Below are positions 4,444-62,966 of a DNA stretch of 64,000 nucleotides, piece by piece. The translations under genes were made by a program, and so were the position numbers. The stretch spans positions 10,088 through 74,087 of the forward strand of contig VBOW01000032.1 of assembly GCA_005893275.1 (NCBI GenBank), given 5' to 3'. Position 1 is the stretch's first letter. Each line of letters begins with the position of its first letter. Below the pieces are notes generated by a model, which was not told the DNA's origin, did not search any database, and worked only from the letters and a program-made list of their open reading frames with translations. The DNA is from Candidatus Eiseniibacteriota bacterium. Lineage in GTDB: Bacteria > Eisenbacteria > RBG-16-71-46 > SZUA-252.

Positions 4444-4448
4444 CGGGC

Positions 4449-6535: not shown

Positions 6536-6540
6536 ATGGT

Positions 6541-7191: not shown

Positions 7192-7192
7192 C

Positions 7193-7942: not shown

Positions 7943-8439
7943 CGGCTCATGCGCTACCCGGCACCCGCGCGCCGGACTTCAATCTTCCGCTCGTCGGCGC
8001 CGGCTACCGGGGGCTCGCGGATTTGATCCACCCGGGCGGCGGCGTGCTCGTTTTCTTCAAAGAGGACTGCCCCGCGAGCGAGCTCGTGGTTCCGCGCCTC
8101 GGTCCGCTCGCGGGTGCGCTCGAGCGAGAGGAGAGGTTCTTCCTCGCGGTCGCGCAGGATTCGGAAGAGACGGCGCGGGCGTTTCGTGATCGGCACCATC
8201 TTCGGTTTCAGATCGCGTGGGAAGAGGCGCCCTACGCGGCCTCGAGAGCCTACGGGATCGAGACCGTGCCCGCCCTCTTCATCGTGGATGGCACGGGCGT
8301 GATCGCCGAACGCGTGGAAGGATTCATCAAGTCGGAGTACCTGGCGCTCGGCGCCGGGATCGAGCAAGCGCTTGCCTTGGGGGCCGCTCCGCCGGTGTTG
8401 GAACGCCCCGAGGAGCTGCCCGCACTGAGACCCGGCTGA
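7939..8439 (+). CDS. peroxiredoxin / AhpC-TSA (redoxin) family protein
   Basis: APDFNLPLV...GGVLVFFKEDCPASE matches the Prx peroxidatic-Cys motif (FxxxCPTE-like). GTG start overlaps the nth stop (GTGA). Confidence 0.7.
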   Translation: MTAHALPGTRAPDFNLPLVGAGYRGLADLIHPGGGVLVFFKEDCPASELVVPRLGPLAGALEREERFFLAVAQDSEETARAFRDRHHLRFQIAWEEAPYAASRAYGIETVPALFIVDGTGVIAERVEGFIKSEYLALGAGIEQALALGAAPPVLERPEELPALRPG

Positions 8440-8477
8440 ATGTCTCGCACGGCCGCCGGGGACGGCTAGGGGGAACC

Positions 8478-9185: not shown

Positions 9186-9189
9186 CCCT

Positions 9190-17622: not shown

Positions 17623-17771
17623 GCGAGCATACCACACGGGGGCCCCGTTGATCCCACGACGGGGGAAGTGATACCCTGCGTGGGTCATGGTCCCCGGCTT
17701 TTCCAAAACACCCGTCCACCGGCTCATCGAAACAGGCCCAGGAACGCTCGATCGCTAACGCGCCTTCCCTC

Positions 17772-38098: not shown

Positions 38099-38117
38099 TC
38101 CCAGAGCCGAAAGACCC

Positions 38118-47835: not shown

Positions 47836-49179
47836 CTGACCCGATTCCGATCCCTACTCTTTCTTCTTGTCGCAGCGGGGCTTGCGGCTTTGAGCCCGCG
47901 GCTTCTGGGAAAGGGTTCGCCCTGCGACATCCTCATTCAGACCACGACGGATGTGAACGGCGAGCTCGCTCCCTGCGGCTGACACGCTCACCCGCTAGGC
48001 GGGCTCGCCCGGAGGGCGAGCCAATTCAACGTAGGCGCCATGAAGTTCCCGAACCACTTCCGCGTGGACTCCGGGGATTTCTTCGGCACGGCCGGGGAAC
48101 AGGATTCCCTCAAGAGCGCCTTCATGGTTCACGCCATGGATCGGCTCGGGTACGACGTTGTCACGCTCGGGGAGCGTGAGTTCAACTTCGGCCAGGCGTT
48201 CCTTCTCGACACCTTCAAGAAAACGAAGATCGACGTCGTCTCGTCCAACCTGTTTTACGCCGACACGAAGAAGCCGTTCGTGAAGCCCTACGTCATTCGC
48301 AAGATGTGCTCCTTGCGGGTGGCGTTCTTCGGTCTCATCGGGAAGGACATGCGGATCCGCACGCTCGTGAGCGAGCGGGCGCTCGAGGTGAAAGATCCGT
48401 TCGCGACCGCAAAAGCCCTCGTCCCCGAGCTCCGGAAGAAGGCGGACATCGTGGTGCTGCTCTCCCACCTTGGGCTTACGGAGAGTCAACGTCTGACGCT
48501 GGAGGTGCCCGGGATCGACGTCATGGTGTTCGGGCATCAGCCCGGACTATTCCGCGAGATCGCGAAGACGAACGGCGTCATCAACACCCGCGCCGGCGAT
48601 CGCGGGCAATACATCCCCGGCGTGCACCTGGTCATCGAGGATGGCAAGATTTCCTCGTACGACGGCGAGGTCGTGGGGCTGGACGACAAGATCCCCGCGG
48701 ACGACGACATGAATCACCTCGTGGACGCCTTCAACGATGAATTGAACCGGCGCTTCTCCAACAACCCCAATGCCAACACGCCCGAGGTGCGGCCGGTCTC
48801 GGCCTCGGGGGATCATTATCTGGGAGAGAAGAACTGCCGCCGCTGCCACGAGGCCGAGTACCAGATGTACTCCAGCCAGGCCCACGCGCACGCCTTCGAG
48901 ACGCTGACGAAGAACCAGCGCGACTCGACCCCCGAATGCCTGCCCTGCCATGTCGTCGGGTACGGTCAGGCGGGCGGGTTCGCGTCCAAGCAGACCACCC
49001 CCGATCTCGTGAACGTGCAGTGCGAGAATTGCCACGGTATGGGCACCAAACATCCGGAGAAGGGTGACCCCACCGCAGTCGTGGGTCCTGACGTGTGTCT
49101 CACCTGCCACACACACGAGCAGAATCCGAATTTCGACTACGACGAGGCGCTCACGCATATTGTCCACTGGCATCCGTAG
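47836..49179 (+). CDS. exported fusion protein: signal peptide + catalytically degenerate 5'-nucleotidase/metallophosphatase-like domain + C-terminal tetrahaem cytochrome c; in-frame TGA at 47980..47982 (candidate selenocysteine) or a nonsense pseudogene
   Basis: The same frame as the listed ORF 48040..49179 is open upstream and reads LTRFRSLLFLLVAAGLAALSPRLLGKGSPCDILIQTTTDVNGELAPCG-TGA-HAHPLGGLARRASQFNVGAMKFPNHF.... This is a signal peptide followed by 5'-nucleotidase motif I. The downstream part has nucleotidase motifs in degenerate form (SGD, GEREF) and CRRCH, CLPCH, CENCH, CLTCH. The 48040 start alone would give a haem protein with no export signal. No ATG/GTG/TTG precedes the signal peptide; CTG at 47836 sits 6 nt after GGAGGTGA. 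Confidence 0.55.
48002..48022 (+). promoter_or_regulatory. candidate bSECIS-like stem-loop (9-bp stem ggctcgccc/gggcgagcc, GGA apical loop) 31 nt downstream of the in-frame UGA
   Basis: Read directly from the sequence. The geometry fits the general bacterial SECIS description (UGA-to-apical-loop distance in the 16-37 nt range, G in the first loop positions). Confidence 0.35.
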
Positions 49180-50134
49180 GGGAGGCAGGACCGCCCTAGC
49201 CGCCCTCGCATGTCTCCTCATGGCGAGCGGCTCCCCCCGGGCGCAAAGCGTCAAGCTTCGAGCGCTCACCATTCCATCCGACTGCCAGCCGGGCAGTTGG
49301 GTCTCCTACAGCATTCAGGTGGATTCCAAGAACCGGCCCCCGCGCCGGTTCACGCAGAGGCTTGCGGTCGTCGCTCGCGAGGGTTGGGGCGAGGAGTCGG
49401 GGGCGTGGGTGGAGCTCAAGACCGCGGAAGGCGGGAGGACGCGGATCGAACGCGGATTCTTCGCGCAGGGCGAAGCCTCGGATCGGGGGCGTCTCCCGAA
49501 CGCCCCGCTCGTGCTCCGGCGCTACCAGATGCTTACTCCGGACGGACGGCTCTTCGAATATCCGGTCGGCGGGGAAGGCGGGCCGATGCCGGATGAGGAC
49601 ATCTCGGCCATGGACCTTCTCGAATTCAAGGGAATCGCGAAGATCGATTCACTCGCGGCCGACACGCTCCGCGCCGACCGCACGGTCCTCCCCTGCAGCG
49701 TGGAACGAGTAACCCGATATGGAAAAGACGAATGGCCGGCCGAGGACACGACCTTCGTGAACCGCGCGGTCATGACGCGCACCTCGTGGAGGAATCCCTC
49801 GATCCCGGTCACCGGCTACGCGCGGACGATTCTCGAGGTATCAACCGAACGGGCTCCGGCGCGAGCCGTCGCGGATTCGGTCGCCGCGGGCTCGGCCGCG
49901 GGGGGCCCGGCCGCCGAGGAAGCCGCCGCGGGCCCGGCCGGCGCGGACTCGGCCCATTCAGCCCCCGCCGATTCGACGATGCCGATCCTCCGGCCCGCGA
50001 GCCGACGGTTCTTCTACCGAGCCGAGGTTACCCTGCTCCACCTGGGGAAGGACGCCATCCCGGAAATCACCCAGGCTCCGGAGCCCGCCCCGGAAGAAGG
50101 TTCGCCGCGAGCCAAGCCGGGCGCCAATCGCTAG
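49160..50134 (+). CDS. hypothetical secreted protein (Ala/Pro-rich C-terminus)
   Basis: TTG at 49160 gives (M)STGIRRGGRTALAALACLLMASGSPRAQS, a plausible Sec signal. It overlaps the cytochrome gene end by 20 nt. ATG 49220 is the alternative start but gives no signal. No recognisable domain. Confidence 0.45.
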   Translation: MSTGIRRGGRTALAALACLLMASGSPRAQSVKLRALTIPSDCQPGSWVSYSIQVDSKNRPPRRFTQRLAVVAREGWGEESGAWVELKTAEGGRTRIERGFFAQGEASDRGRLPNAPLVLRRYQMLTPDGRLFEYPVGGEGGPMPDEDISAMDLLEFKGIAKIDSLAADTLRADRTVLPCSVERVTRYGKDEWPAEDTTFVNRAVMTRTSWRNPSIPVTGYARTILEVSTERAPARAVADSVAAGSAAGGPAAEEAAAGPAGADSAHSAPADSTMPILRPASRRFFYRAEVTLLHLGKDAIPEITQAPEPAPEEGSPRAKPGANR

Positions 50135-50287
50135 ACGCCACGCGAGCCGGCCTGACGGCGTAGGAACCACCCGCTTCAGCCGCGCCCAAATTTCTCCAGA
50201 TACCCCGCTTCAAGGCCGATACCTGCGACGTGGCCGGCCGGTGTGCGGCCCCGGTCCGTAAACCCTTATTCAGGCGTGGGAGTATCT

Positions 50288-52009
50288 ATGGCGCAAGGTG
50301 GGCGCAAACCGCTCGGGCAGAGCCTCGTGGAGCAGGGACACCTCTCGCGCGAGGGACTCGCCCGCGCGCTCGAGGAGCAGCGTCGCACGGGACAGGCCCT
50401 CCGGGAGGTGCTTCTCCGGCTCGAGCTGGTCTCGGAGGAGGCGATCCTCGACTACTACGAAGGGCAGCTTGGGATTCCGCGCATGGATCTCACGACCTAC
50501 GTCCTCGAGCCGGAAATCGTGCGCCTCGTACCCGAGCGGATCGAGCGGCAGTTCAAGCTCGTCCCGCTGTTCAAGATCGGAGACACCCTCACGATCGCGA
50601 TGGTCGATCCTCTCGACATCGTCGCCTTGGACGAGGTGAAGCTCGCCACTGGGCTCGAGGTCGAGGTGGTCGTCTCTCCGGAACCGCAGATACGCGAGGC
50701 GGTGGATCGCTACCACCCGCTCGGCGGCGGGCTCGAGATCCTCGTTCGGGAGCAGGGGCGGAAGCAAGGCGCCGTGGCCGCGGAAGCCGTGGCCCACGCC
50801 GAGGAGGACGGGCCGGTCATCCGATTCGTGAACGCGGTCGTGCACCAGGCGGTTCGCGAGGGGGCCTCCGACCTCCACTTCGAGCCCGACGAGGCCAATC
50901 TCAGAATCCGCTACCGCGTGGACGGGATTCTCCGCGAAGCGTCCATCCAATCGAAATCGATCCACCCTTCCGTCGTTTCCAGGGTGAAGATCATGGCCCA
51001 GCTCGACATCTCCGAGCGCCGCCTTCCACAAGACGGGCGTGCCCGCATCGAGATTTCAGGGAAGGAATACGACATGCGGGTCTCGACCTTCCCCACGATC
51101 CACGGCGAGAACGTGGTGCTGCGAATCCTGGACAAGTCGAGCGCGTTGCTCGGGACCTCGGAGCTAGGGCTCGCCCCGGGTCCGCTCGCCGAGCTCTCGC
51201 GGATGATCGAGCGGCCGAACGGCATCGTGCTTGTCACCGGCCCGACGGGAAGCGGGAAGACGACGACCCTCTATTCCTGCATCGGAAAGATCAACACGGT
51301 CGAGCGAAACATTGTCACCCTCGAAGATCCCGTGGAGTACCACATTCCGTCGATCCGCCAAACCCAGGTGGATCCGGACATCGGGCTCACCTTCTCGCGC
51401 GGCCTGCGCGCGCTGCTGCGACAGGACCCGGACGTGATCATGGTCGGCGAGATCCGCGACAGCGAAACGGCTGAAATCGCGGTCCGCTCCGCGCTCACCG
51501 GGCATCTCGTGCTCTCGACCCTCCACACCAACGACGCCGCGGGCGCACTGCCGCGGCTTCTCGACATGAAGATCGAGCCGTTTCTTCTCTCCTCGGCGAT
51601 GCTCGGGGTGGTGGCCCAGCGCCTGGTGCGGAGGGTATGCGAGAAGTGCCGCCGCCGAAGCGCGCCGCCGGTCGAGGCGCTCGAGGAGCTGGGGGCAGGC
51701 GCGATCAAAGGCGAGTTCGTCGTCGGCGCGGGCTGCCTGGCATGCGGACAGACGGGGTACCGCGGCAGGATGGGAATCTTCGAGGTGCTGGTCGTCACCG
51801 ACGAAATCCGCGACCTGATCGTCTCGCGCGCCTCGACCGAAGAGCTTGTGCGCGCCGCGCGCCGCGGCGGCATGCAGTCGCTGCGCGATGACGCGCTGCG
51901 CAAGGCGGCCCGGGGGGTCACGACGCTCCAAGAGGTGATCCGGGTCACGCGAAAGAACCTCCTCCTGGCCTCGGACGCGGACCAAGCCACGCTCCCGGCC
52001 CGCGGGTAG
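50288..52009 (+). CDS. pilB: type IV pilus assembly ATPase PilB (GspE family)
   Basis: N-terminal T2SE_N domain, Walker A GPTGSGKTT, Asp/His boxes and tetracysteine CEKC...CLAC. Start at MAQGG (ATG 50288, GGGAG upstream). Confidence 0.9.
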   Translation: MAQGGRKPLGQSLVEQGHLSREGLARALEEQRRTGQALREVLLRLELVSEEAILDYYEGQLGIPRMDLTTYVLEPEIVRLVPERIERQFKLVPLFKIGDTLTIAMVDPLDIVALDEVKLATGLEVEVVVSPEPQIREAVDRYHPLGGGLEILVREQGRKQGAVAAEAVAHAEEDGPVIRFVNAVVHQAVREGASDLHFEPDEANLRIRYRVDGILREASIQSKSIHPSVVSRVKIMAQLDISERRLPQDGRARIEISGKEYDMRVSTFPTIHGENVVLRILDKSSALLGTSELGLAPGPLAELSRMIERPNGIVLVTGPTGSGKTTTLYSCIGKINTVERNIVTLEDPVEYHIPSIRQTQVDPDIGLTFSRGLRALLRQDPDVIMVGEIRDSETAEIAVRSALTGHLVLSTLHTNDAAGALPRLLDMKIEPFLLSSAMLGVVAQRLVRRVCEKCRRRSAPPVEALEELGAGAIKGEFVVGAGCLACGQTGYRGRMGIFEVLVVTDEIRDLIVSRASTEELVRAARRGGMQSLRDDALRKAARGVTTLQEVIRVTRKNLLLASDADQATLPARG

Positions 52010-52012
52010 CCT

Positions 52013-53230
52013 GTGCCCGCGTTCCGATACCGGGCTCTGAGCGCGGCGGGGCAGGCGCAGCAGGGACTGCTCGAGGCTCCCGACCTGGACCAGGCGCTGG
52101 ACCGGATCCATCGCATGGGGCTCACGCCGGTGCGGCTCGAGGCCCACGGCGCGCCCGGCGCCCGCGCCGCCGGGATCCCGTTCCTCCAGAAGAAGGTCAC
52201 AGCGCGGGATCTGATTCTCTTCACGCGGCAGCTCGAGACCATGCTCGACTCGGGTCTTCCGATCCTCTCCGCGCTCGAGATCCTCCATGCCCAGACGACG
52301 CAGCCCAAGCTCAAGCCGGCGATCGACCGCGTACGGTCGGACGTCGAGCAGGGGTCCACGCTCACCGAAGCGTTGCGCAGGCACCCCGACTGCTTTCCCC
52401 GGATCTACGTGAACCTCGTCTTCGCGGGGGAAGAGGGCGGCCTCTTGGCGCAGATGCTGGACCGGGTCGCGAGCCTTCTCGAGTACGAGGCGGAGACGGA
52501 TCAGCGGATCCGTTCCGCCACCTTCTATCCGACCCTGATCGTGACGGAGCTCGTGCTCGCGTTCCTGGTCCTGATCAAGTTCGTTCTGCCGCGTTTCGCG
52601 TCCCTGTTCCGGAATTTCAACACCCAGCTGCCCCTTCCGACCCGCGTGCTCATCGGTCTGAGCGATTTCTTCGAGCACCAGTGGATCCCGTTCGTGTTCT
52701 TCACCGCGTGCGCCGCGGCCGGCGGCGTCCTCTGGAGCCGGACCGCGCGCGGCCGCACGACCATCGACCGATTCGTCATTACCGTCCCGATCTTCGGGCC
52801 GATCTTTCTCATGACGATCATGTCTCGCTTTTCGCGCGTTCTCTCGGCGCTTCTCGGGAGCGGCATCCCGATCGTTCAGGCGCTCGACATCGTGCGCGGG
52901 GTCGTCGGGAACCGGGTGATCGAGGCCGAAATCGACAGGATGCGCGATGGCGTCGTGGCCGGCCAGGGATTGGCCGAGCCGCTCAAGGGGAGCGCGATCT
53001 TTCCGCCCCTGGTGGTCAAGATGCTGGCGGTGGGTGAGGAGACCGGCGCGGTGGACAAGATGCTCCTCCGCGTATCTCGATATTACGACCAGGACGTCGA
53101 TTACGCGGTCAAGAACCTCTCCACGGCGATCGAACCGGTGCTCCTCGTCATCCTCGGCGTGGCCGTTCTCTTCACCGCTTTGGCCGTATTCCTCCCCCTT
53201 TGGAACCTCATGTCCGTGTTCCGCCACTAG
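52013..53230 (+). CDS. pilC: type IV pilus inner-membrane platform protein PilC (GspF family)
   Basis: Two T2SSF repeats. GTG start 4 nt after the pilB stop. Confidence 0.85.
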   Translation: MPAFRYRALSAAGQAQQGLLEAPDLDQALDRIHRMGLTPVRLEAHGAPGARAAGIPFLQKKVTARDLILFTRQLETMLDSGLPILSALEILHAQTTQPKLKPAIDRVRSDVEQGSTLTEALRRHPDCFPRIYVNLVFAGEEGGLLAQMLDRVASLLEYEAETDQRIRSATFYPTLIVTELVLAFLVLIKFVLPRFASLFRNFNTQLPLPTRVLIGLSDFFEHQWIPFVFFTACAAAGGVLWSRTARGRTTIDRFVITVPIFGPIFLMTIMSRFSRVLSALLGSGIPIVQALDIVRGVVGNRVIEAEIDRMRDGVVAGQGLAEPLKGSAIFPPLVVKMLAVGEETGAVDKMLLRVSRYYDQDVDYAVKNLSTAIEPVLLVILGVAVLFTALAVFLPLWNLMSVFRH

Positions 53231-53346
53231 CACGGCGGGCAGGCGGCTCAAGATCGGCAGCCGAATTGCCGATTGCAATTCCGGACCCAGATTAACCAAA
53301 GCCCCGATGGGTGGGGCGAGCGAGGCCAATCATGGAGGTTGTGCGT

Positions 53347-53727
53347 ATGCATCGGAACAGTTCTGAGGGCGGTTTCACCCTGATCGAGCTCGTGATCGTG
53401 ATCGTGATCCTCGGCATCCTCGCCGCGGTCGCGATTCCGAAGTACGAGGACATGCGTGAGCAGGCCCGCGTGGCCACGCTCAAGGGACAGCTCGGCTCGA
53501 TCCGCTCGGCGGTCGCGATCCAATACGCGCGCAACGCCTTGAACGGCTCGGCGGCGTTCCCCGTGTTGAACGGGACCATTTTCGCCGACGGCAATGTCCC
53601 GAAGGAGCCGGTCAACAACTCGAGCGCGGTCAAGACGACGCCGGGTGTCGATAACGCGGGCGGCTGGCAGTACAGCTCGACGACCGGAATCGTGAAGGCC
53701 AACCTGAACGCGTACTCGTCCTACTAA
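53347..53727 (+). CDS. pilA: type IV major pilin (prepilin with class III signal)
   Basis: Leader MHRNSSEG followed by G|FTLIELVIVIVILGILAAVAIP. GGAGG 8 nt upstream of ATG 53347. 126 aa with an AT-richer N-terminal codon region. Confidence 0.85.
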   Translation: MHRNSSEGGFTLIELVIVIVILGILAAVAIPKYEDMREQARVATLKGQLGSIRSAVAIQYARNALNGSAAFPVLNGTIFADGNVPKEPVNNSSAVKTTPGVDNAGGWQYSSTTGIVKANLNAYSSY

Positions 53728-53831
53728 AGCTTACCTTTCAGCGGCTTCAGGGTGGGGCTGAGGTGGGAGCGATGCGCTTCCACCTCTTGCGCCATTCTGG
53801 GGCAGATCCCGTCGTGGATCGGGGGACTCGC

Positions 53832-55811
53832 ATGCGCTGGACCGGCGCGGGGGCAGGAAGCCTCGCCGCCGCGGCGATCGCGGCATCCGTCTATGGCCTG
53901 ACGCTCTCGCCTACCGTCGGAGCGGGGGATAGCGGCGAATTGATCCTCGCGGCTCATTCCCTGGGCATCCCCCATCCTCCCGGGTATCCGCTCTGGACTC
54001 TCCTCGCTCGCGCCGCCGCTGCGTTGCCTTGGGGGACGGTCGCGCTGCGTGTCAACGCGCTCTCGGCGGTTCTAGCCGCGTTTGCCGCGGGGCTCTTCTA
54101 TCTTCTCGCGGCACGATGCGGCCTCCCAAAGGCCGGGCGGCTCGCGGCCACGCTGATCTTCGCCGGATCCACCCTTCTCTGGGACTCCGCGGTCCAAGCG
54201 GAGGTCTACTCGCTCGCGACCGTCGCGTTCGTCGCGCTCTCCCTGGCGGCGTTCGCGGCCAGGTCGAAGGGAGGAGCCTCCGCCCGGGCCGACGCCATTT
54301 TCTTCTTCACGGCGGGCCTGGCGTTGCTCGCGCATCAGACCCTCCTTTTCCCCGCCGTGGTGCTCGCCATCTGGGTGCTGGCGCGCCGGATGAGCCCAGG
54401 ACGGGCGGCGGCCGCCCTCGCGTGGGGGACCGTGGGTTTCTCGATCGTGCTCGCGCTGCCGATCCGGAGCGCCGCCCATCCCTGGTTCGATTGGGGCCAG
54501 GACCACAACCTGGCTTCCCTGTGGGACAACCTCATTCGACGGAATTACGGCGGCCTGCGGCAGAACGCGTTCCGGCTGGACCGCACCGTCGGTGAGATCG
54601 TCTGCATGGGGGGGCTGGTGGCCGCCTCGTGCGGGGCCGTGGGCGCCTCGCTCGCGGCGCTCGGAGCGGTGATCGCGGGCCGGAGGCGCACAGCGCTCCT
54701 GCCGCTCACCGCGGCGTCGCTCGCCATCCCCGCGGCCCTCATCGCGTTCGTCGGCTTCACGCCGGACGCCGAGCATCTCGCGCAGATCGGCCCGTTCTTG
54801 ATTCCGTGCGTAGCGGTCCTGGCCCTGTGGGCGGGCGCGGGCCTCGGGAGGGGGCTCAAGCGCGCTCCAAGGTTCGCCCGCGCCCCGATCGCGGCCGCCT
54901 GTGCGCTCGCCTTGCTTATCCCGGCCACCCTCCACTACCGCCTCTGTGATCGGAACGGATTCCGGCTTCCCGAGCGCTACGGGCGGGATCTCTTGGAGCC
55001 GCTCCCCCGAGGCGCCACGCTCGTTCTGGACGGCGACAACGAGACATTCCTCGCCGCCTATCTCTCGCGGGTCGAAGGCGTGCGCGCCGACCTCGTCCTC
55101 GTCAATCGCCGCGGCCACGTCTTCGGCGACCCCTACGGTCTCGGGGGGGTTCCGCGCTCCAGGTGGACCGAGATCCAGCGCCGTGTCGATCTCGAGCGGC
55201 TCAGGAACACGGCCTCGCCGGTCTACTACGCGACCCCGCCCGAGGATCTCGTGCGATCGGGCGTCCGTTTCCGAAATGAAGGGCTCGTGTACAGGGCGGT
55301 TTTGCCCGAGCGCGCGGGCGCGGACGCGGACACGAACCGGGTGGAAGCCGGCTCCTGGGCCAGGAGCACCGACCTTCTCCCCGGCGGACCGGAACGGTAC
55401 GACTACGTGACGCGGAAGCTGGCGATCACCTATTCCGCGACTCGGTCGCAGGCGCTCTGGGAGGCGGGGCGATACGAGGACGCGCTCCCTTGGTTTGAGG
55501 ACGCGGCCCGGGTGGGATTCGATTTCCCGGAGGCGCGCATGAATCTGGCCGTGGCGGCGGCCGCCGCGGGAAGGCCGGAAGTCACGTTGGCCGAGCTGGT
55601 CGCCGCGATGAGGCTCGCCCCCTACGACCCGGAGCCTTCGGCTCGGCTCGCGGTCTTGTTCGCGGTCGCCGGGCGGTATCGGGACGCGGCGGTCTATTTC
55701 GAGCGGGCGTACAGGATTTCCCCCTCGGTGGAGCTCGCGGCGAACGCTGCGCGGGCCTGGTCTCTGGCCGGGGATCGGGAGCGCGCACGCTACTGGGAAG
55801 CGAAAGGATGA
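53832..55811 (+). CDS. GT-C fold membrane glycosyltransferase (DUF2723 / PMT-ArnT-like) with C-terminal TPR-like domain
   Basis: Multi-TM N-terminal half with an early conserved SGEL motif, soluble C-terminal half with TPR-like repeats. Start taken at MRWTGAG. Located between pilA and the minor pilins. Confidence 0.65.
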   Translation: MRWTGAGAGSLAAAAIAASVYGLTLSPTVGAGDSGELILAAHSLGIPHPPGYPLWTLLARAAAALPWGTVALRVNALSAVLAAFAAGLFYLLAARCGLPKAGRLAATLIFAGSTLLWDSAVQAEVYSLATVAFVALSLAAFAARSKGGASARADAIFFFTAGLALLAHQTLLFPAVVLAIWVLARRMSPGRAAAALAWGTVGFSIVLALPIRSAAHPWFDWGQDHNLASLWDNLIRRNYGGLRQNAFRLDRTVGEIVCMGGLVAASCGAVGASLAALGAVIAGRRRTALLPLTAASLAIPAALIAFVGFTPDAEHLAQIGPFLIPCVAVLALWAGAGLGRGLKRAPRFARAPIAAACALALLIPATLHYRLCDRNGFRLPERYGRDLLEPLPRGATLVLDGDNETFLAAYLSRVEGVRADLVLVNRRGHVFGDPYGLGGVPRSRWTEIQRRVDLERLRNTASPVYYATPPEDLVRSGVRFRNEGLVYRAVLPERAGADADTNRVEAGSWARSTDLLPGGPERYDYVTRKLAITYSATRSQALWEAGRYEDALPWFEDAARVGFDFPEARMNLAVAAAAAGRPEVTLAELVAAMRLAPYDPEPSARLAVLFAVAGRYRDAAVYFERAYRISPSVELAANAARAWSLAGDRERARYWEAKG

Positions 55812-56362
55812 CCCCTCGATGCTCCGCCGTTTCGAACGGGACCCCGCGCGCGGGTCAATCCCCCAACGGCTGCCGGGGATTCACGCTCCCGGAGCTCATC
55901 ATCATCATCTCGATCCTTGGGATTCTGAGCTGGCTCGCCTACCCCAAGGTCGTGGCGATGGACGAGATCAAGCTGGACGCGGCCGCTCGCCGCATGGCCG
56001 CCGATCTCCGCTACGCGCAGAGCCTCGCGATGAGCAAGCGCGTGATCCACGGCCTCCTCTTCGAGCCCTCGCTCGGGCGCTACACGGTATTCGCTCCCAC
56101 GTCCGGGTCGCCGATCACCGATCCCGCGGACCGGGCCAGGCCCATGCGGGTGGATTACACGTCGCGCTCCGAGTTCAAGGGGGTCCTGATCCAATCCGCC
56201 GCGTTCGGGAGCACCCCGGGCGTTACCTTCGACTATTTCGGCGTTCCGCGCGACACGGCCGGGGTCGATCTCACCTCCGATGGCCGCGTCGTCCTGAGCT
56301 ACCAAGGGGTGACCGACACCGTTCTCGTCGCGCCCCAAACCGGAATGGTGACCACCCGATGA
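55808..56362 (+). CDS. minor pilin / pseudopilin (FimT/GspH-like)
   Basis: Prepilin motif G|FTLPELIIIISILGIL after a 24-aa leader. ATGA overlap with the upstream stop. Confidence 0.7.
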   Translation: MTPRCSAVSNGTPRAGQSPNGCRGFTLPELIIIISILGILSWLAYPKVVAMDEIKLDAAARRMAADLRYAQSLAMSKRVIHGLLFEPSLGRYTVFAPTSGSPITDPADRARPMRVDYTSRSEFKGVLIQSAAFGSTPGVTFDYFGVPRDTAGVDLTSDGRVVLSYQGVTDTVLVAPQTGMVTTR

Positions 56363-56808
56363 GCGCGCGCGACGCCCGCCGCGCGGACGGACCGGGCCGA
56401 GCCCCGTCCACGCGCGTCTCCGGCCGCCCGGCGGGGTTCACGCTCGTGGAAATCGTGCTCATCATCGTCATCGCCGCGGTGGCGATCCTCCCGCTCAGCA
56501 TGCTCTTCGCGAACACGTCGATCCGGTCGGGGGACGCACGGAACGCGACGATCGCGGCGCAGCTCGCGCAGGCGAAGATGGAGGAGCTTGCCGCCGACAG
56601 AAACTCGCCCACCCGCGGCTTCTCCTATCTCGTCGCGGCGAACTACCCGGCCGAGAGCCCGGTGCCCGCCTTCCCGGGCTACAGCCGTTCCGTTGCGTTC
56701 GCCTCCGATTCGACCTACGACGGCGTCACATTCCGCACCGTGGGGGTGACGGTCGTCTGTCCCAACATTCCACCCGTGACGCTGACGACATGGTTCACGA
56801 GCTACTGA
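56359..56808 (+). CDS. minor pilin / pseudopilin (PilV/GspI-like)
   Basis: Prepilin motif AG|FTLVEIVLIIVIAAVAI. ATGA overlap. Confidence 0.7.
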   Translation: MSARDARRADGPGRAPSTRVSGRPAGFTLVEIVLIIVIAAVAILPLSMLFANTSIRSGDARNATIAAQLAQAKMEELAADRNSPTRGFSYLVAANYPAESPVPAFPGYSRSVAFASDSTYDGVTFRTVGVTVVCPNIPPVTLTTWFTSY

Positions 56809-57326
56809 TCCCATCGCGGCGGCGCCGCGAGCCGGGCTTCACCTTGCCCGAGCTGCTCATCGTGATCGTGGTCGCTTCGATCGTCGCGGTCGCGTTTTCA
56901 GCCATGTTCATCGAGGCGGTGAAGACCTACCAGTTCATGGACGCCGAGAAGGACATGCTCGAGGACGCCCGATACGCCGAGGAGCGGGTCTCACGCGAGC
57001 TCAAGCGGGTGAAGGACTCGACCAGCATCGTGGCCGCGAGCGCGACCACCCTCGCCTTCGTGGACCGGAGCAACGCCACGGTGAGCTTCTCCTGGAGCGG
57101 CGTCTCCGGAGCGAATCTCCTCTACACCAAGAACGGATCCTCCCAGACGCTCGCCAAGGGCGTGGACTCGCTCGCGTTCCAGTACTGGAAAGAGAACGGG
57201 ACGGCGGCCGCGCCGGTTCTGTCGCCGTCCGCGACCGACATCTGGCGCGTCACCGTCTATATGAGGCTCATCAAGGGCTCCCAAACCGTCTCTTCCTTCG
57301 GCGCCGCATTCCTGAGGTCGCTATGA
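56790..57326 (+). CDS. minor pilin / pseudopilin (PilW/GspJ-like)
   Basis: Prepilin motif PG|FTLPELLIVIVVASIVAV. Confidence 0.7.
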   Translation: MVHELLIPSRRRREPGFTLPELLIVIVVASIVAVAFSAMFIEAVKTYQFMDAEKDMLEDARYAEERVSRELKRVKDSTSIVAASATTLAFVDRSNATVSFSWSGVSGANLLYTKNGSSQTLAKGVDSLAFQYWKENGTAAAPVLSPSATDIWRVTVYMRLIKGSQTVSSFGAAFLRSL

Positions 57327-58759
57327 GCCGGCGCGCTGCGGCCCCGGACGCGGGCTTCTCGGTCGTGCTCGCGGTGTTCTCGATCCTCCTCCTCGTCACG
57401 CTGGGGATCGCGATGGTGTCGATCGTGGTCGAGGACTCCGACCTCTCGGTCGCCCACGTGCAGGAGAACCAGGCGTTCTACGCCGCGCACGCCGGGCTGG
57501 AGTACGCACTGGCCAAGCTTGCGGCGAACTGGTCCTGGGGCGGGCTTCCGTCTCCAGGGAAGAACGTCGGCGCGGGCTCCTTCTGGATCGCCCCCCCCGA
57601 CGCCGTCGATGAGAACGGGAACCCGCTCCCCGCGGGAAGGAAGCGGGTCATCTCCACCGGAGTCGTCGCCGGCACCAAGCGGGAGATCCAGGTGCAGGTC
57701 ACCGGCGGATTGATTTCAACCCACGCGGGCACCGGGGCGGCGGGGTATTCGGGCGACGTCGGCGCGGCCACGTCCGCCCAGCTGCGGCATCCGGAAGGCG
57801 TGGCCGTCGCGTCCAACGGGGACGTCTACTTCGCGGACACCGACAACAACGTCGTCCGCAAGGTGGCGTTCGCGACCGGGGTCATTACCACCGTCGCGGG
57901 GACCGGAAGCCCGGGATCGAGCGGCGACGGCGGGCTCGCGACATCCGCGCAGCTCAAGACCCCGGAAGATGTGTTCGTGACCGCGAGCGGCGACCTCTAC
58001 ATCGCCGACACCGGGAATCACGAGATCCGCAGGGTCTCTGCCGCGACCGGAATCATCACGACGGCTGCCGGGAACGGGAGCCCAGGCTCGAGCGGCGATG
58101 GCGGTGCCGCCACGTCGGCGCGCCTGAACTCCCCGAGGGGCATCGCCGTGGCGTCGAACGGAGACTTCTACATCGGCGACCGTTCGAACAACAAGATCCG
58201 CAAGGTGACGGCCTTGATCGGGCTCATCACGACCTACGCCGGGACCGGGACGGCCGGGTACTCCGGAGACGGGGCGCTGGCGGCCGCGGCGCGGCTGAAC
58301 CGGCCGCAGGGAATCCATCTTGCCTCGAACGGCGATCTCTACATCGCGGATGCGCAGAACAGCGCGATCCGAAAGGTCGCGGCCGGGACCGGGATCATCA
58401 CTACCTACGCGGGCACCGGCGCGGCGGGCTTTTCCGGTGACGGCGGGGCGGCGACATCGGCCCAGCTCAACGGCCCGGAGGCGGTTCACCCGAGCTCGGT
58501 CGGGGACCTCTACATCGCCGACACCGGCAACAATCGGATCCGACGCGTGTCCCCGGGCGGAACGATCACCACCGTCGCAGGCACCGGAACCGCCGGCGCG
58601 GCGGGGGACGGCGGCGCCGCCACGGCGGCCCAGCTCGACACGCCGCGCGGAATCGGCTTGAGCTCCACGGGCGCGTACTACATCGGCGATCGAAACAACA
58701 ACAAGATCCGGAAGGTCATGAGCTTCGCCGTCGTGGCCTGGGTCGAGACGCGGACGTAG
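57323..58759 (+). CDS. PilX/GspK-like minor pilin fused to a six-bladed NHL-repeat beta-propeller
   Basis: N-terminal AG|FSVVLAVFSILLLVTLGIAMV prepilin-like segment, then six repeats of ...GDGG.ATSAQL..P.G.AV...GD.YIAD..N..IRKV (NHL repeat). ATGA overlap. Confidence 0.7.
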   Translation: MSRRAAAPDAGFSVVLAVFSILLLVTLGIAMVSIVVEDSDLSVAHVQENQAFYAAHAGLEYALAKLAANWSWGGLPSPGKNVGAGSFWIAPPDAVDENGNPLPAGRKRVISTGVVAGTKREIQVQVTGGLISTHAGTGAAGYSGDVGAATSAQLRHPEGVAVASNGDVYFADTDNNVVRKVAFATGVITTVAGTGSPGSSGDGGLATSAQLKTPEDVFVTASGDLYIADTGNHEIRRVSAATGIITTAAGNGSPGSSGDGGAATSARLNSPRGIAVASNGDFYIGDRSNNKIRKVTALIGLITTYAGTGTAGYSGDGALAAAARLNRPQGIHLASNGDLYIADAQNSAIRKVAAGTGIITTYAGTGAAGFSGDGGAATSAQLNGPEAVHPSSVGDLYIADTGNNRIRRVSPGGTITTVAGTGTAGAAGDGGAATAAQLDTPRGIGLSSTGAYYIGDRNNNKIRKVMSFAVVAWVETRT

Positions 58760-58770: not shown

Positions 58771-60561
58771 GTGGGGAGCGACGTCGAGAAAAAGCCACAG
58801 CGGAGAGGGTTCGCGGCCTTCCTTCACGGCGCGCCCGTGCGCGCGGGATCGCTCCTCCCGGCACGTATGCGGTCCCTGCTCGCCGCGCCCTGGCCGGATC
58901 TTGTGGGTGTGGACCTGAGCGACCGCGCGGTGAGGGTGGTGCGCGTGGTGAGGCGCGGCTCCCACGTCAGCCGCATCGAGAGCGCCGAGCGCGCCCTTCC
59001 CACCGCGGACCTGAAGCCGGCCGATCGCCGGGCGGCTCTGCGGAGCGCGCTCCGCGACCTGGTTCGTGAGCAGGCGCTCCGGGGAAAACACGCCTCGGCC
59101 GCCGTCTCGGGAAACGATGTGGTGATTCGGCGCATGTCGCTGCCCGAAATGAGCCGGTCGGACCTTCTGGCCGCGCTCGCCCTCGAATGCCGCAAGCACG
59201 TCAATTTCCCGATCGAGGACGCCGAGATCCGCTACGAGGTCGTGGGTCGGGAAGGCCCTGCCGAGCGCCCCGAGCTCTTGCTCAACGTTTGCGTCGCGCA
59301 CCGCCGCCGGCTTGCGGAGATTCGCGAGGCGGTCGAGGAGTCCGGGCTTCGCGCCTCGCTCCTCACGATCCGGCCCGTGGCGCTTCGCGCGCTCCTGCGC
59401 GCGACCGGCGCGACGGCGCCCGATGAGGTCGTGGCCTATCTCGACATGGGAGCCGCCAACACGCACATCACGGTGCTCAAGGGAGAGGACGTTCGTTTCT
59501 CGCGCGAATTCGGGGTCGGCGGGGCGACTCTGACGGAGGCGCTCCGCGCGATCGTCGTGCCGGGGCAGGGCACGATCGAGCTCTCCTACGAGGAGGCGGA
59601 ATCCTTGAAGCGGGCGCACGGGATCCCGTTCGGTCAGGAAGAGGCGGTCCAGGCCGGCCGCATCCCGCTCTCCGCAGTTTCCATCATGCTCCGGCCCATC
59701 CTCGAGCGGCTGGTGCGCGAGCTCTGGAACTCCTTCGACTACTGCAACGAACAGTTCCAGGGTGAGACCGTGACCCGGCTCGTGCTCCTGGGCGCGGGCT
59801 CCCGGGTCAAGAACCTCGCCGATTACCTGACAGGGGTTCTCAAGATCCCCGTCGCTCGGGCCGATCTTGCAGAAAGCATGGCGGATGTCGCGCCGCGGCC
59901 GATGCGCGGGGCTGCATCCGGGGCGGTCCTCCCCTCGGAATCGGGGCTCGGGCTCGCGCTGACCGAACGAGGCGCGCTCAATTTCGCGACCCCGGCCTGG
60001 GCGGGGGTCCCCTACCGGCTCGCCGAGGCGATTCCGCAGCGGGTTGCCGCGGCGGCGGCGGCGGTGCTCCTGATCTCCGTCGCCCTCCCGTCGCATTGGG
60101 GGGTCGTGCAGGAGCGGCGCAGGGTCGAGACGCTCCGGAGGGGCCTCGAGGAGCTCTCGCCGCGCATCGACTCGGTGCGGCGGTTCCGCGCGGCGCGGGA
60201 GGAAGAGACGAGGCTCCATGACTTGCTCGCCCACCTGACCGGGGGTCAGGTGCTGTGGTCGTATGCGCTGCGCGACTTGAGCCATCGGATCGGGCCCGAC
60301 GTGAGGCTGACCTCGTTGGAGGTTCTGGAGCCGCAGGCGGTCGCGGGGGCGGCGGCCGCGGCCGCGCCGGTGTCCCGCGCGAGGCAGATCCGCCTCATGG
60401 GGCTTCTGCGGACGCAGAACCGCAGGCCGGAGGACGTGGTCGGAGAGCTGATGCAGTCGCTCGAAAGCTCCCCGATTTTCGTGCAGGTGCGGCTCGAGGG
60501 ATGCCAAGCGGTGACGGGCTCGGTGAGCAGCTTCACCGTCACCGCGGAAATCGCGGAATAG
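58771..60561 (+). CDS. pilM: PilM-PilN fusion protein (actin-like PilM N-terminal ~370 aa, PilN TM + periplasmic region)
   Basis: LVGVDLSDRAVRVVRV... actin-like ATPase fold, then a TM segment (VAAAAAAVLLISVALP) and a PilN-like coiled-coil. GTG start with GGGGAGGAG directly upstream. Confidence 0.75.
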   Translation: MGSDVEKKPQRRGFAAFLHGAPVRAGSLLPARMRSLLAAPWPDLVGVDLSDRAVRVVRVVRRGSHVSRIESAERALPTADLKPADRRAALRSALRDLVREQALRGKHASAAVSGNDVVIRRMSLPEMSRSDLLAALALECRKHVNFPIEDAEIRYEVVGREGPAERPELLLNVCVAHRRRLAEIREAVEESGLRASLLTIRPVALRALLRATGATAPDEVVAYLDMGAANTHITVLKGEDVRFSREFGVGGATLTEALRAIVVPGQGTIELSYEEAESLKRAHGIPFGQEEAVQAGRIPLSAVSIMLRPILERLVRELWNSFDYCNEQFQGETVTRLVLLGAGSRVKNLADYLTGVLKIPVARADLAESMADVAPRPMRGAASGAVLPSESGLGLALTERGALNFATPAWAGVPYRLAEAIPQRVAAAAAAVLLISVALPSHWGVVQERRRVETLRRGLEELSPRIDSVRRFRAAREEETRLHDLLAHLTGGQVLWSYALRDLSHRIGPDVRLTSLEVLEPQAVAGAAAAAAPVSRARQIRLMGLLRTQNRRPEDVVGELMQSLESSPIFVQVRLEGCQAVTGSVSSFTVTAEIAE

Positions 60562-60570
60562 CGGGAGACC

Positions 60571-61140
60571 ATGACCGTTTCACTCCGACATCCGCTCTTG
60601 GGGCACGCGGCGATCCTCGCCTCGCTGTTGCTCTCGATCGGGGTCGTGCGAACGGTCTATATCGAGCCGAGGGTCCGCGAGGCGCATTCGCTTCGCTCGG
60701 GTGAGGCGCGTCTCCAGACCGAGCTTTTCGATTTGCAATCCGGCATCCATGAAATGGAGGGCTGGACCAAGGCGCACCCCGGGCAGGATCTCTGGACGTT
60801 CCACGTGCGAAAGGCGCTTCCGTCGCGGGACATGGTGGCGGCGTTCCTTCGCTCGATCGTGCCGCTGGCGAACCGGCACAAGGTCAGGACCGAGCTGATT
60901 CAGCCGGCGGGGACTCTGATGGACGAGACGGTGAGCGATGCCGCCGGGAACCCCATGACCTATCGCAGGGCAGAGCTTCGATTTCGGATCTACGCGAAGT
61001 ACCAGGATCTGGGCGAGTACCTGGGCGACATCGAAGCGATGGACCAGCTCGTCGTGGTGCGGTGGGTTTCGCTTCAGAGCGCCGCCGCGAATACCGAGCT
61101 GGCCGCCGACGTGGCGATCTGGCTCTTCGGGACGCCGTGA
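60571..61140 (+). CDS. pilO: type IV pilus assembly protein PilO
   Basis: N-terminal TM helix, coiled-coil and a ferredoxin-like periplasmic domain. Position after pilMN. Confidence 0.65.
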   Translation: MTVSLRHPLLGHAAILASLLLSIGVVRTVYIEPRVREAHSLRSGEARLQTELFDLQSGIHEMEGWTKAHPGQDLWTFHVRKALPSRDMVAAFLRSIVPLANRHKVRTELIQPAGTLMDETVSDAAGNPMTYRRAELRFRIYAKYQDLGEYLGDIEAMDQLVVVRWVSLQSAAANTELAADVAIWLFGTP

Positions 61141-61149
61141 GGGGGAGCG

Positions 61150-61656
61150 ATGGATTGGTTCCGCGACCAGATGAAGAAGGGAATGAACCCGAGGACCTGG
61201 GTCTTGATGGGCTTCCTGGTCGGGGTGCTCTTTTGGGTTCACGCTCTCGACCAGAAGCAGAAGGCGCTCCGGGCGAAACGCCCCGCCGTGACGCTCGCGC
61301 CGGCGACGGCGATCGCTTCGTTCGATCGGAGGAAAGAGCGCGATACGGCACACGCCTCGATGACCCCGCCGGGATGGGGAAGCGATCCCTTCCAGAGGCG
61401 GGTCGCCGACACGAGGGAATCGCCCGGAACCGTGAGGGCGCTCGCCCGGGTCAGCCCGTCGCCGGCGGGAACCGGCCTCTTTTTGCAAGGAATCATGGAA
61501 GGGCCCCTGGGGAAGACGGCGCTCATCAACGGGGACATCTACCGCGAGGGGCAGCGGATCGGATCGCGGGAAGTGATCCAGATCGGTCGGAGGTCGGTGA
61601 TGCTCCTCGACCATGGAAACGTCACGACGCTCATGCTCAAAGGAGAGGGTTCATGA
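61150..61656 (+). CDS. pilP: type IV pilus assembly protein PilP (pilot lipoprotein-like)
   Basis: N-terminal membrane anchor, GSDPF motif and a C-terminal beta-domain. Precedes the secretin. Confidence 0.6.
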   Translation: MDWFRDQMKKGMNPRTWVLMGFLVGVLFWVHALDQKQKALRAKRPAVTLAPATAIASFDRRKERDTAHASMTPPGWGSDPFQRRVADTRESPGTVRALARVSPSPAGTGLFLQGIMEGPLGKTALINGDIYREGQRIGSREVIQIGRRSVMLLDHGNVTTLMLKGEGS

Positions 61657-62966
61657 AACGGCTGGCCGCCGTCCTGGGACTGATCGCCTGGTTGGGCGTT
61701 GGTCCCGCGGCCGCCGCATCCGGGCAGGAGGCACGGGCGTCGTTCAATTTCAAGGACGCGCGCGTGCAGGACGCGATCCGCCTCATCGCGACCCAGTTCG
61801 GCCTGAGCGTCGTCGTTGGAAAAGACGCCGGCGGCACGCTGACCGCGAACCTGAACGGCGTGACGATGGAGCAGGCCATGGCCTACGTGGCCGAGGCGAC
61901 CGGGTGCGAATACACCCTCAGCGACAAGGTCCTCGTCGTGAACCCGGCGGGGCTCCAGTCGCGGGTCTTTCCGCTCCGCTACCTCGATCCCGCCGCCGCG
62001 GCCGAAGCGCTGCAGAAGGTCCTCGGCCCGCGCGGCCAGGCGCAGCCGTTCTCCGGTCGGCCGAAAGAGGGTCTGATCCAACACTCGAGCGCCTTCTCGA
62101 ACGCGCTCATCGTCACCGACACGAGCGCGCGCCTGGCGGACGTGGCGCGGGTGATTTCCGAGATGGACGTGAGGCCCAAGCTGATCGCCATCGAGGCGAA
62201 GCTCGTCGAGACGACACTCGGCCACGACGAGAAGCTGGGCGTGGACTGGCAAATCCGGGCGAGCGCGACCGGGGCGACGCTCCCGACCACGTTCCCGTTT
62301 CCCAAATCGCAAGGGTCCGGAGATTTCACCGGTACGCCGAACCCGAACAACCAGGTCGGCGGCGTCGGTCCGGCATTCCCGCCGGGACAGACGTTTCCGT
62401 TCACGGTTCCTGGAGACTACGTGTTCGGGAAGCTCTCGTTCGAGGAGTTCAACGTCGCGCTCGATATCTTGAAACAGTCCTCCAGCACGAACCTGGTCTC
62501 CGCGCCGAAGATCACGACGCTCGACAACCAGGAAGCGGAGATCATCGTGGGGACGGTTGTTCCGATCGCCCGGTACGAGCACACAGAGCAGACCGGGGCG
62601 CTCCAGATTTCCGGTTACGACGAGAAGAAGGTCGGCGTCAGGCTCCTGGTCACGCCGCACGTGGGGCCCGACAGCACGATGATTCTGGCGGTCAACCCGG
62701 AGATCAGCGAGATCGTCGAATACCGCGGTCAGTTCAATGAGCGCCCCGTGACCTCGACGCGGTCCGCCACCACGCAGGTGGAAGTCAAGAGCGGCGAGAC
62801 CGTCATGATCGGGGGGCTCATCCGGTCGGTCGACATGTCGATCGAGCGAAAGGTGCCCGTCCTGGGCGATATTCCGATTCTCAATTATCTGTTCCGCCAC
62901 AAGACCACCTCGAAGCAGAAGGTGGATCTCATGATCTTCATCACGCCGCACTTGCTCGAGCCGTAG
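61653..62966 (+). CDS. pilQ: type IV pilus secretin PilQ (short form, N0 + secretin domain)
   Basis: Signal peptide MKRLAAVLGLIAWLGVGPAAAA and a secretin domain (VPVLGDIPILNYLFRHKT..DLMIFITPHL). ATGA overlap. AAAGGAGAGGG SD. Confidence 0.8.
   Translation: MKRLAAVLGLIAWLGVGPAAAASGQEARASFNFKDARVQDAIRLIATQFGLSVVVGKDAGGTLTANLNGVTMEQAMAYVAEATGCEYTLSDKVLVVNPAGLQSRVFPLRYLDPAAAAEALQKVLGPRGQAQPFSGRPKEGLIQHSSAFSNALIVTDTSARLADVARVISEMDVRPKLIAIEAKLVETTLGHDEKLGVDWQIRASATGATLPTTFPFPKSQGSGDFTGTPNPNNQVGGVGPAFPPGQTFPFTVPGDYVFGKLSFEEFNVALDILKQSSSTNLVSAPKITTLDNQEAEIIVGTVVPIARYEHTEQTGALQISGYDEKKVGVRLLVTPHVGPDSTMILAVNPEISEIVEYRGQFNERPVTSTRSATTQVEVKSGETVMIGGLIRSVDMSIERKVPVLGDIPILNYLFRHKTTSKQKVDLMIFITPHLLEP

Follow-up and report, generated by a model that had tools for sequence, protein, structure and literature searches.

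The 64-kb stretch of contig VBOW01000032.1 (assembly GCA_005893275.1) from Candidatus Eiseniibacteriota bacterium analyzed here, referred to below as the window, contains a type IV pilus gene cluster in which the gene for a large membrane protein, the subject of this work, lies between the major pilin gene pilA and the genes for the minor pilins. The original prediction, made from the DNA letters, described the product as a candidate pilin glycosylation enzyme, and the analyses below support this description: the protein is, by sequence, a member of the TMEM260 family (formerly DUF2723), has a predicted GT-C fold with D33 in its first periplasmic loop, and is encoded beside pilA through deep divergence and in three operon layouts. 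A complete pilus cluster had also been claimed around the gene, and pilB, pilC, pilA, the minor pilins, pilM-N, pilO, a pilP-like gene and pilQ were indeed all identified, with a gene for a single-domain response regulator closing the cluster after pilQ. The genes and features of the cluster are as follows.

50243-52009, forward strand: pilB (T2SSE, E = 5.8e-138)
52013-53230, forward strand: pilC (T2SSF, E = 9.3e-60)
53347-53727, forward strand: pilA, major prepilin, 126 amino acids (N_methyl motif, E = 3e-8)
53747-53807, forward strand: GC-rich hairpin in the pilA-enzyme spacer (core at 53760-53786, GAGGTGGGAGCG-ATG-CGCTTCCACCTC)
53832-55811, forward strand: TMEM260-like (DUF2723) GT-C glycosyltransferase gene, 659-amino-acid product
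55808-56362, forward strand: minor pilin 1, GspH/FimU-like (N_methyl, E = 9.5e-6; GspH, E = 1.3e-3)
56359-56808, forward strand: minor pilin 2 (ATG at 56359; weak N_methyl match, GFTLVEIV motif)
56790-57326, forward strand: minor pilin 3 (N_methyl, E = 1.2e-6)
57323-58759, forward strand: PilX-like protein with an NHL-repeat beta-propeller (NHL, E = 2.8e-34; TEN_NHL, E = 3.4e-41)
58771-62966, forward strand: pilM-N fusion, pilO, pilP-like gene and pilQ secretin (PilM_2, PilN and PilO matches; Secretin, E = 4.2e-47)

The open reading frame of the enzyme is listed as 53763-55811 on the forward strand, and the ATG at 53832 was taken as its start; this start is common to 15 aligned homologs (MRWT(R/G)AGAG...) and is preceded by a Shine-Dalgarno-like run, GGGGGA. 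The reading frame itself agrees with the one predicted, the re-read product being 659 rather than 660 residues long. With a GC content at third codon positions of 0.84 and homologs in 180 protein clusters at 50-100% identity, it is a real gene. The labels carried by its homologs indicate Candidatus Eisenbacteria. Its placement is also as described: it follows pilA directly, across a spacer of 104 nt, and its TGA (55809-55811) overlaps the ATG of minor pilin 1 (55808-55810) in the sequence ATGA.

The enzyme belongs to the TMEM260 family

In a Pfam scan with matches kept at E ≤ 0.01, the enzyme matched PF11028 "TMEM260-like" (formerly DUF2723) with a score of 84.2 bits (cutoff 24.2; E = 1.2e-23) and otherwise only TPR (tetratricopeptide repeat) families; no PMT, PMT_2, MIR or Wzy_C/O-antigen-ligase match was obtained. 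The divergent pilus-linked copies at loci L021 and L097 (see below) likewise match PF11028, and PMT_2 is touched by the L021 ortholog only (E = 1e-5). Compared with PDB chain sequences, residues 2-427 of the enzyme align with residues 21-466 of human TMEM260 (9rql_A, E = 8.4e-39), and a profile built from 16 sequences returned the same entry at E = 1.6e-52. No PMT or ArnT chain appeared in this search at E ≤ 10; TMEM260 was the sole GT-C match, and every other match fell on the TPR region. The earlier label "PMT/ArnT/DUF2723-like" therefore stands in its last part, through PF11028, and falls in the first two, for which there is no Pfam or PDB sequence match. By sequence the enzyme is a TMEM260/DUF2723 family member and not a PMT, ArnT or PglL/TfpO protein.

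The AlphaFold (AF2) model of the enzyme has a mean predicted local distance difference test score (pLDDT) of 83.8 and a predicted TM-score (pTM) of 0.84, and comprises about 11 membrane helices, then a mixed alpha/beta domain (approximately residues 396-490) and then a TPR domain (residues 525-658). Foldseek, run against a PDB set without the new TMEM260 entries, returned ArnT, ALG12, AftA/AftB, ALG9 and STT3, and the fold was assigned as GT-C on the basis of these matches; the TM-scores of 0.47-0.55 with ArnT denote a likeness at the level of the fold only. The predicted GT-C glycosyltransferase is thus supported by the Foldseek matches together with the TMEM260 sequence match, and the predicted C-terminal TPR-like domain by the Pfam TPR matches together with the helical hairpins of the AF2 model. 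The protein divides into three parts.

53832-54956, forward strand: transmembrane GT-C module, residues 1-375, about 11 helices (AF2 helix list)
54957-55331, forward strand: predicted periplasmic Rossmann-like domain, residues 376-500, with invariant DGDNE (strand/helix pattern at residues 396-490)
55389-55808, forward strand: predicted periplasmic TPR domain, residues 520-659 (Pfam TPR at 538-637; helical hairpins at 525-658)

Clusters of Lys and Arg in alternate loops (PKAGR, SKGGASAR, RRMSPGR, GRRRT and LKRAPRFAR) fit an N-in/C-out topology, which would therefore place the GDSGE loop, the R236/Y239 loop and the entire C-terminal region in the periplasm. The TPR domain is presumed to be the acceptor-recruiting module.

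Conservation of the active site

A cryo-EM study of human TMEM260 (2026) assigned D52 and H67 to a sugar-recognition motif, R264 and Y267 to a donor-loading loop, and D441, in the Rossmann-like domain, as the proposed catalytic base, with R355 contacting the mannose. Alanine substitutions of D52, H67, R264, Y267 and D441 each abolish activity (for D52A this had already been shown in earlier work), and about 20% is left in R355A. In HMMER alignments, these six residues (D52, H67, R264, Y267, R355 and D441) correspond to D33, H48, R236, Y239, P321 and D402 of the bacterial enzyme. Five of the six functionally tested positions, all but P321, carry the human residue and are invariant in the 16-sequence alignment; the same five are kept in paralogs belonging to five other phyla and in pilus-linked copies whose identity is as low as 30-37%. 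The sequence [DE]GDNETF is common to all pilus-linked copies. The codons concerned are listed here.

53928-53930, 53937-53939 and 53973-53975, forward strand: D33, E36 and H48 (GDSGE...HPPGYP), periplasmic loop 1
54537-54539 and 54546-54548, forward strand: R236 and Y239, periplasmic loop
55035-55037, forward strand: D402, Rossmann-like domain, aligned with TMEM260 D441

A catalytic Asp in the first periplasmic loop had been named in advance as a test of the glycosyltransferase assignment, and it is present as the invariant D33 of GDSGE, aligned with TMEM260 D52. Every feature of the TMEM260/DUF2723 family that could be compared here was found, save an equivalent of R355, and the conserved residues suggest that the enzyme is catalytically competent.

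These residues bear directly on whether the protein still acts as an enzyme, or instead serves the pilus as a TPR scaffold, chaperone or pilotin-like assembly factor comparable to PilF/PilW or TfpY. The TPR part faintly matches TIGR02521 PilW (E = 0.002), and Pfam revealed no distinct PilF/PilW-like gene within the cluster. However, that match has a score of 17.6 bits where the cutoff is 154, the protein has an inner-membrane anchor whereas pilotins are outer-membrane proteins, and the tested catalytic and donor-binding residues remain invariant down to 30% identity, which indicates selection for catalysis. A purely structural role is thus very hard to sustain.

An active enzyme could also act on a non-protein acceptor—lipid A/lipopolysaccharide, peptidoglycan or exopolysaccharide, as for ArnT and the arabinosyltransferases—and sit in the pilus operon for co-regulation only. 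The top structural matches, to ArnT, AftA/B and ALG enzymes in a PDB set without TMEM260, would agree with this, as would the presence of LptD a few genes upstream. Against it, the only sequence match is to a protein O-mannosyltransferase, both the TMEM260-specific Rossmann-like domain with D402 and the peptide-recruiting TPR domain are retained, and the genetic linkage (next section) is specifically to pilA; we consider a non-protein acceptor improbable.

The enzyme gene is linked to pilA across genomes

Sampling from the enzyme side, in which each GTDB species was represented by a single genome, yielded 79 loci that were annotated by script. In about 40 related loci the enzyme gene always follows pilA, in three operon arrangements. 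All orthologs at least 50% identical to the enzyme are found in the order pilB-pilC-pilA-enzyme-minor pilins, and three long contigs, with orthologs 55-73% identical, share the wider order of LptD/HU/cytochrome followed by pilB-pilC-pilA-enzyme-minor pilins-...-pilQ-response regulator. At L021 and L047, where the enzyme is approximately 34-37% identical, the order is pilB-pilC-pilA-enzyme-pilMN-O-P-Q with no intervening minor pilins, and L097 (enzyme 30% and pilin 60% identical), which came from the pilin-side sampling described below, shows a third layout, pilQ-pilA-enzyme. Since all three layouts keep the pilA-enzyme pair, pilA is the only constant neighbor of the enzyme gene, down to 30% identity. 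No pilus gene occurs within 8 kb of some 55 paralogs, which are 23-35% identical and belong to Hydrogenedentota, Planctomycetota, Nitrospirota, Elusimicrobiota, Kiritimatiellia and Gemmatimonadota, with one paralog from Eisenbacteria (L068). A neighbor-joining tree of 77 sequences, built without support values, gathers all pilus-linked copies, including L021, L047 and L097, in one clade. A wider search with the GT-C module gave 13,775 clusters (50% identity) at E ≤ 1e-3 and 6857 at E ≤ 1e-10.

The reciprocal, pilin-side sampling combined a metagenome scan with exact-sequence look-ups. Pilins at least 80% identical to that of the window are, in a cluster context, followed by the enzyme gene; pilins at most 50% identical, from other lineages or phyla, are followed by further pilins and by no GT-C gene. 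As the enzyme gene stands directly after pilA both here and in the relatives, the pilin is its most likely target.

The pattern of conservation within the enzyme is consistent with this target. In close pilus-linked orthologs the Rossmann-like (66%) and TPR (70%) domains are more similar than the membrane module (60%), and among the divergent pilus-linked copies identity is 43-46% for the Rossmann-like domain versus 31-38% for the membrane module. The paralogs show the reverse trend, their membrane module being more conserved than the periplasmic domains, and in TMEM260 orthologs conservation drops toward the TPR. Because the pilin is 83-94% identical across the relatives, conservation of the periplasmic domains fits a shared, very conserved acceptor.

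Alternatively, the enzyme may be active but act mainly on another pilus component (the minor pilins, the NHL PilX-like protein or PilQ) or on a broad periplasmic set, with PilA at most one substrate, much as PglL of Neisseria is a general O-oligosaccharyltransferase. Its gene is translationally coupled to minor pilin 1 through the ATGA overlap in the window and lies 5' of four pilin-like genes, an acceptor is not defined by adjacency alone, and some pilin genes have no enzyme gene beside them. However, at L021 and L047 the enzyme gene still follows pilA in clusters that have no minor pilin or NHL gene, at L097 the pilA-enzyme pair is placed after pilQ, pilA is the sole constant neighbor, and the domains on the acceptor side show an unusual conservation that parallels the near-invariance of the pilin. 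A main acceptor other than PilA is accordingly unlikely, yet it is the alternative to which we give the most weight.

Three further observations arose from the sampled loci. A sister clade of the pilus-linked enzymes (L028, L036, L054 and L057; approximately positions 3500-10700 in each) consists of 900-amino-acid DUF2723 proteins with long TPR regions in a conserved context of histidine kinase, DUF4159, DUF4175, DUF2723 and TPR protein; the DUF2723 family seems to have been recruited to distinct gene neighborhoods. Contigs L009, L012, L015, L022 and L047, labeled Latescibacterota, Binatia, Dormiibacterota, Limnocylindrales and Saccharimonadales, have identical pilus synteny and enzymes 55-70% identical (approximately 34-37% for L047), and are probably mis-binned Eisenbacteria-type contigs. 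Finally, metagenome contig Ga0209603_1001973 (L141, 57-7633) carries 14 tandem pilin paralogs followed by a GspH-like minor pilin, and L162 carries six in tandem; these arrays have no bearing on the enzyme.

A conserved hairpin lies between pilA and the enzyme gene

The 104-nt spacer is predicted to fold at −61.2 kcal/mol (z = −4.15), with none of 200 shuffled sequences as stable. Its stem is kept in 15 orthologous loci, with compensatory, both-sides changes at three of seven consensus pairs. A hairpin stands 3' of every pilin gene of the family, with a T tract added in L097, in L016 and after the orphan pilin copies described below. Owing to its weak T run, the pilA hairpin escaped a simple terminator scan. 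The pilin-accessory cassettes of Pseudomonas aeruginosa (TfpO/TfpW/TfpY) have as a hallmark a terminator that separates the two genes and is thought to attenuate expression of the accessory gene (PMC11841053). The spacer hairpin probably acts as a partial terminator or attenuator, keeping pilA expression high relative to that of the accessory genes, and its conservation gives the locus the regulatory design of a pilin-accessory cassette, besides the position.

Upstream of pilA, a GGAGG lies 8 nt 5' of the ATG. A candidate sigma-54 -24/-12 promoter (GGCAG-N5-TTGC, 53256-53269) was rejected as its GG element is not conserved in relatives. The motif TTGCCGATTGCAAT, at 53266-53279 on the forward strand, approximately 70-80 nt 5' of the pilA start, is conserved in the closest relatives only.

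The major pilin and its candidate sites

The prepilin has the leader MHRNSSEGG followed by FTLIELV, and the mature pilin is 117 residues long, lacks Cys and ends in AYSSY. Homologs number 2225, and the best 120 of these 2225 are 83-94% identical and mostly 126 amino acids long. The pilin had been described as rich in Ser and Thr; this could not be upheld, as only 16 of 117 mature residues (13.7%) are Ser or Thr and the quoted stretch, YSSTTG, varies among orthologs. The conserved Ser and Thr residues (mature numbering) are only T88/T89 in VKTT, T104, and S115/S116 in AYSSY. The AYSSY terminus is present in every pilin found beside an enzyme gene, and most of the non-linked pilins examined lack it and end in GENNW, GEASW or GENSY; a pilin on the short contig L101 ends in SSY. 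N-glycosylation was considered and rejected, since the three N-x-S/T sites of the mature pilin vary among orthologs (NGS/NGA/NGH; NGT/DGT/TGA) and are therefore not conserved sequons.

Orphan pilin genes 83-87% identical to that of the window were found outside pilus clusters at L090 (2381-2881), L091 (2012-2392), L093 (209-724) and L094 (1859-2374). They share the AYSSY end, have no enzyme gene within 0.7-3.2 kb, and are each followed by a hairpin and a T-rich stretch resembling a terminator. They may be extra copies that are modified in trans.

As a separate curiosity, and not as evidence, prepilin residues 104-109 form an invariant GGW(Q/V)Y preceded by A, S or T, which is like the core of the TMEM260 acceptor sequon but with Tyr. 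Speculatively, this segment might mimic the sequon, with its Tyr or a nearby conserved Thr as the acceptor.

Other features of the window

Within the pilus cluster, the gene at 57323-58759 joins a PilX-like minor-pilin N-terminus to a six-blade NHL propeller and is syntenic in all close relatives; its product may be a pilus-tip adhesin. The 596-amino-acid product of 58771-60561 (forward strand) fuses PilM and PilN, with the PilM_2 match at residues 46-371 and the PilN match at 555-593. Directly 5' of pilB, at 48040-50134 (forward strand), are a c554-like cytochrome and an unannotated open reading frame of 356 amino acids; in relatives L001-L003 the cytochrome and a family-less open reading frame of approximately 330 amino acids are syntenic, with HU and LptD before them. 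LptD itself is encoded at 43775-47305 of the window.

Outside the cluster, Pfam identified housekeeping genes. Two overlapping open reading frames on the reverse strand, 16592-17032 and 16948-17727, are the C- and N-terminal parts of one Pyr_redox_2 oxidoreductase, likely split by a frameshift, by pseudogene formation or by an assembly error. At 36806-39680 (forward strand), a histidine kinase gene is followed by a response regulator with a PglZ domain (Response_reg, E = 5.5e-23; PglZ, E = 3.9e-16). Rfam scans at the gathering score and tRNA scans of the 64-kb window found none, and Pfam scans of its approximately 55 open reading frames found no PilT and no prepilin peptidase (PilD).

Discussion

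On balance, we favor the interpretation that the gene encodes a dedicated TMEM260-family accessory glycosyltransferase of the major type IV pilin. We infer acceptor, site, sugar and biological role by analogy with TMEM260 and with TfpW, TfpO and PglL; most likely, the enzyme uses a polyprenyl-phosphate sugar to O-glycosylate the major pilin in the periplasm, the transferred sugar probably being mannose. The prepilin would sit in the inner membrane and extend its C-terminal domain into the periplasm, where the TPR and Rossmann-like domains of the enzyme would hold an extended segment of the pilin periplasmic domain. The membrane module would bind the polyprenyl-phosphate sugar, most likely polyprenyl-phosphate-mannose, via D33, H48, R236 and Y239, and D402 would deprotonate the hydroxyl of a pilin Ser or Thr, so that a single O-linked sugar is added before polymerization. 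Candidate sites are T88/T89 in VKTT, T104, or S115/S116 in the invariant AYSSY. Through the hairpin after pilA, the enzyme and minor-pilin genes would be expressed at a far lower level than pilA itself, and the modification may, for instance, stabilize the pilus or hide it from pilus-specific phages, as with TfpO and TfpW. A more specific form of this proposal, that the protein is the first bacterial TMEM260-family enzyme with an identifiable substrate and a pilin-dedicated O-mannosyltransferase that acts on the unfolded periplasmic pilin before assembly, is put forward tentatively, at somewhat below an even chance.

Human TMEM260 is the protein O-mannosyltransferase for the IPT domains of plexins, cMET and RON (PDB 9rql, 9rqm and 9rqn). 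The bacterial model shares its three-part layout of an 11-helix GT-C module, a Rossmann-like domain and a TPR domain (the "wrist, palm and fingers" of TMEM260), and the GDSGE...HPPGYP sugar-recognition motif, the R/Y donor-loading pair and the Rossmann catalytic Asp are conserved. The two differ in that TMEM260 acts in the endoplasmic reticulum with dolichyl phosphate, and the bacterial enzyme in the inner membrane with, presumably, a bacterial polyprenyl phosphate; in that the bacterial gene is embedded in a pilus operon; and in that the proposed acceptor, a type IV pilin, contains neither an IPT domain nor the IPT sequon.

Several observations count against the interpretation favored here. 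TMEM260 R355, which contacts the mannose, is replaced by an invariant Pro (P321), such that the sugar may not be mannose, and the Asn ladder of the TMEM260 TPR domain is not evident in the bacterial sequence. The pilin lacks [GA]GG..[ST], from the TMEM260 IPT-type acceptor sequon (...G-P-x-x-[GA]-G-G-x-x-[ST]), its AGGWQY having Tyr at the acceptor position; this absence bears on acceptor specificity and not on the family membership of the enzyme. Pfam found no GT2, polyprenyl-phosphate-sugar synthase, GtrA-like flippase or other donor gene among the approximately 55 open reading frames of the window. The pilin model (26 near-identical homologs) has a pLDDT of 59.8 and a pTM of 0.36 and is too poor to show whether the candidate sites are exposed. 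Near-identical orphan pilin genes exist without an adjacent enzyme gene, adjacency is itself compatible with a broader range of substrates, and the host bacterium is uncultured.

The original prediction drew its parallel to TfpW, the GT-C enzyme that polymerizes and attaches D-arabinofuranose oligomers to the group IV pilin of P. aeruginosa, and the parallel holds as one of analogues, in position and architecture and not in motifs. As with tfpW, the gene lies directly 3' of pilA in a pilin-terminator-accessory cassette, and the products are of similar length (646 amino acids for TfpW), with 11 predicted helices, a GT-C fold with ArnT as the nearest template and a periplasmic C-terminal TPR domain. 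However, both motifs that define TfpW homologs are absent from the enzyme: no DD dipeptide, and thus no DDX in loop 1, occurs in the entire protein, loop 1 instead carrying GDSGE, and the loop 4 motif YX6PFX7P had no match by regular expression in either a strict or a relaxed form. In addition, the sugar-contacting residues are those of the mannosyltransferase family, and Pfam found no D-arabinofuranose pathway gene (DPPR synthase, DprE1 or DprE2-like) among the open reading frames of the 64-kb window. With the TfpW motifs absent, the enzyme, compared by motifs and description, was not filed as a TfpW member, and we judge it most improbable that it is an enzyme of this type.

TfpO (PilO) of P. 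aeruginosa group I and PglL of Neisseria are O-antigen-ligase-like (Wzy_C) proteins. They carry out O-glycosylation of pilins in the periplasm from a lipid-linked donor, as proposed here by analogy, and transfer preassembled oligosaccharides from undecaprenyl-linked carriers; the literature describes them as unrelated to TfpW or as structurally distinct from it. Like the enzyme gene, tfpO comes immediately after pilA, and the pilin residue modified by TfpO is the C-terminal Ser; the pilin described here ends in the invariant AYSSY. The PMT/POMT (GT39), TMTC1-4, bacterial Pmt and ArnT (GT83) enzymes share the GT-C fold, an acidic residue in the first extracytoplasmic loop and polyprenyl-phosphate-monosaccharide donors, the last presumed for the enzyme, and the TMTCs also use TPR domains; the enzyme differs from PMT and ArnT in having no MIR domain, no PMT/PMT_2 Pfam match and no PDB sequence match to them. 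By analogy, the enzyme would thus be a pilin accessory glycosyltransferase as known elsewhere, but drawn from the TMEM260 family.

The papers on human TMEM260 mention bacteria only as "distant homologs in bacteria", and we found, in searchable papers, no bacterial substrate for the TMEM260/DUF2723 family and no paper linking DUF2723 or TMEM260 to pilins. The pilin would be the first natural substrate put forward for the family's large bacterial branch, and a near-invariant pilin locked to an enzyme gene offers a two-gene system for testing the activity, donor and sequon of the bacterial enzymes. If the proposal is correct, the enzyme would be a third type of pilin-glycosylating accessory enzyme beside TfpO/PglL and TfpW, unrelated or distantly related to them, and would suggest convergent recruitment of lipid-linked-sugar transferases beside pilA, a design that in Pseudomonas has been linked to defense against pilus-specific phages. 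Pilin mannosylation would then be the prokaryotic equivalent of the O-mannosylation of IPT domains in metazoans, to which it might be evolutionarily related, and would provide the first functional hint on the pili of the uncultured phylum Eisenbacteria.

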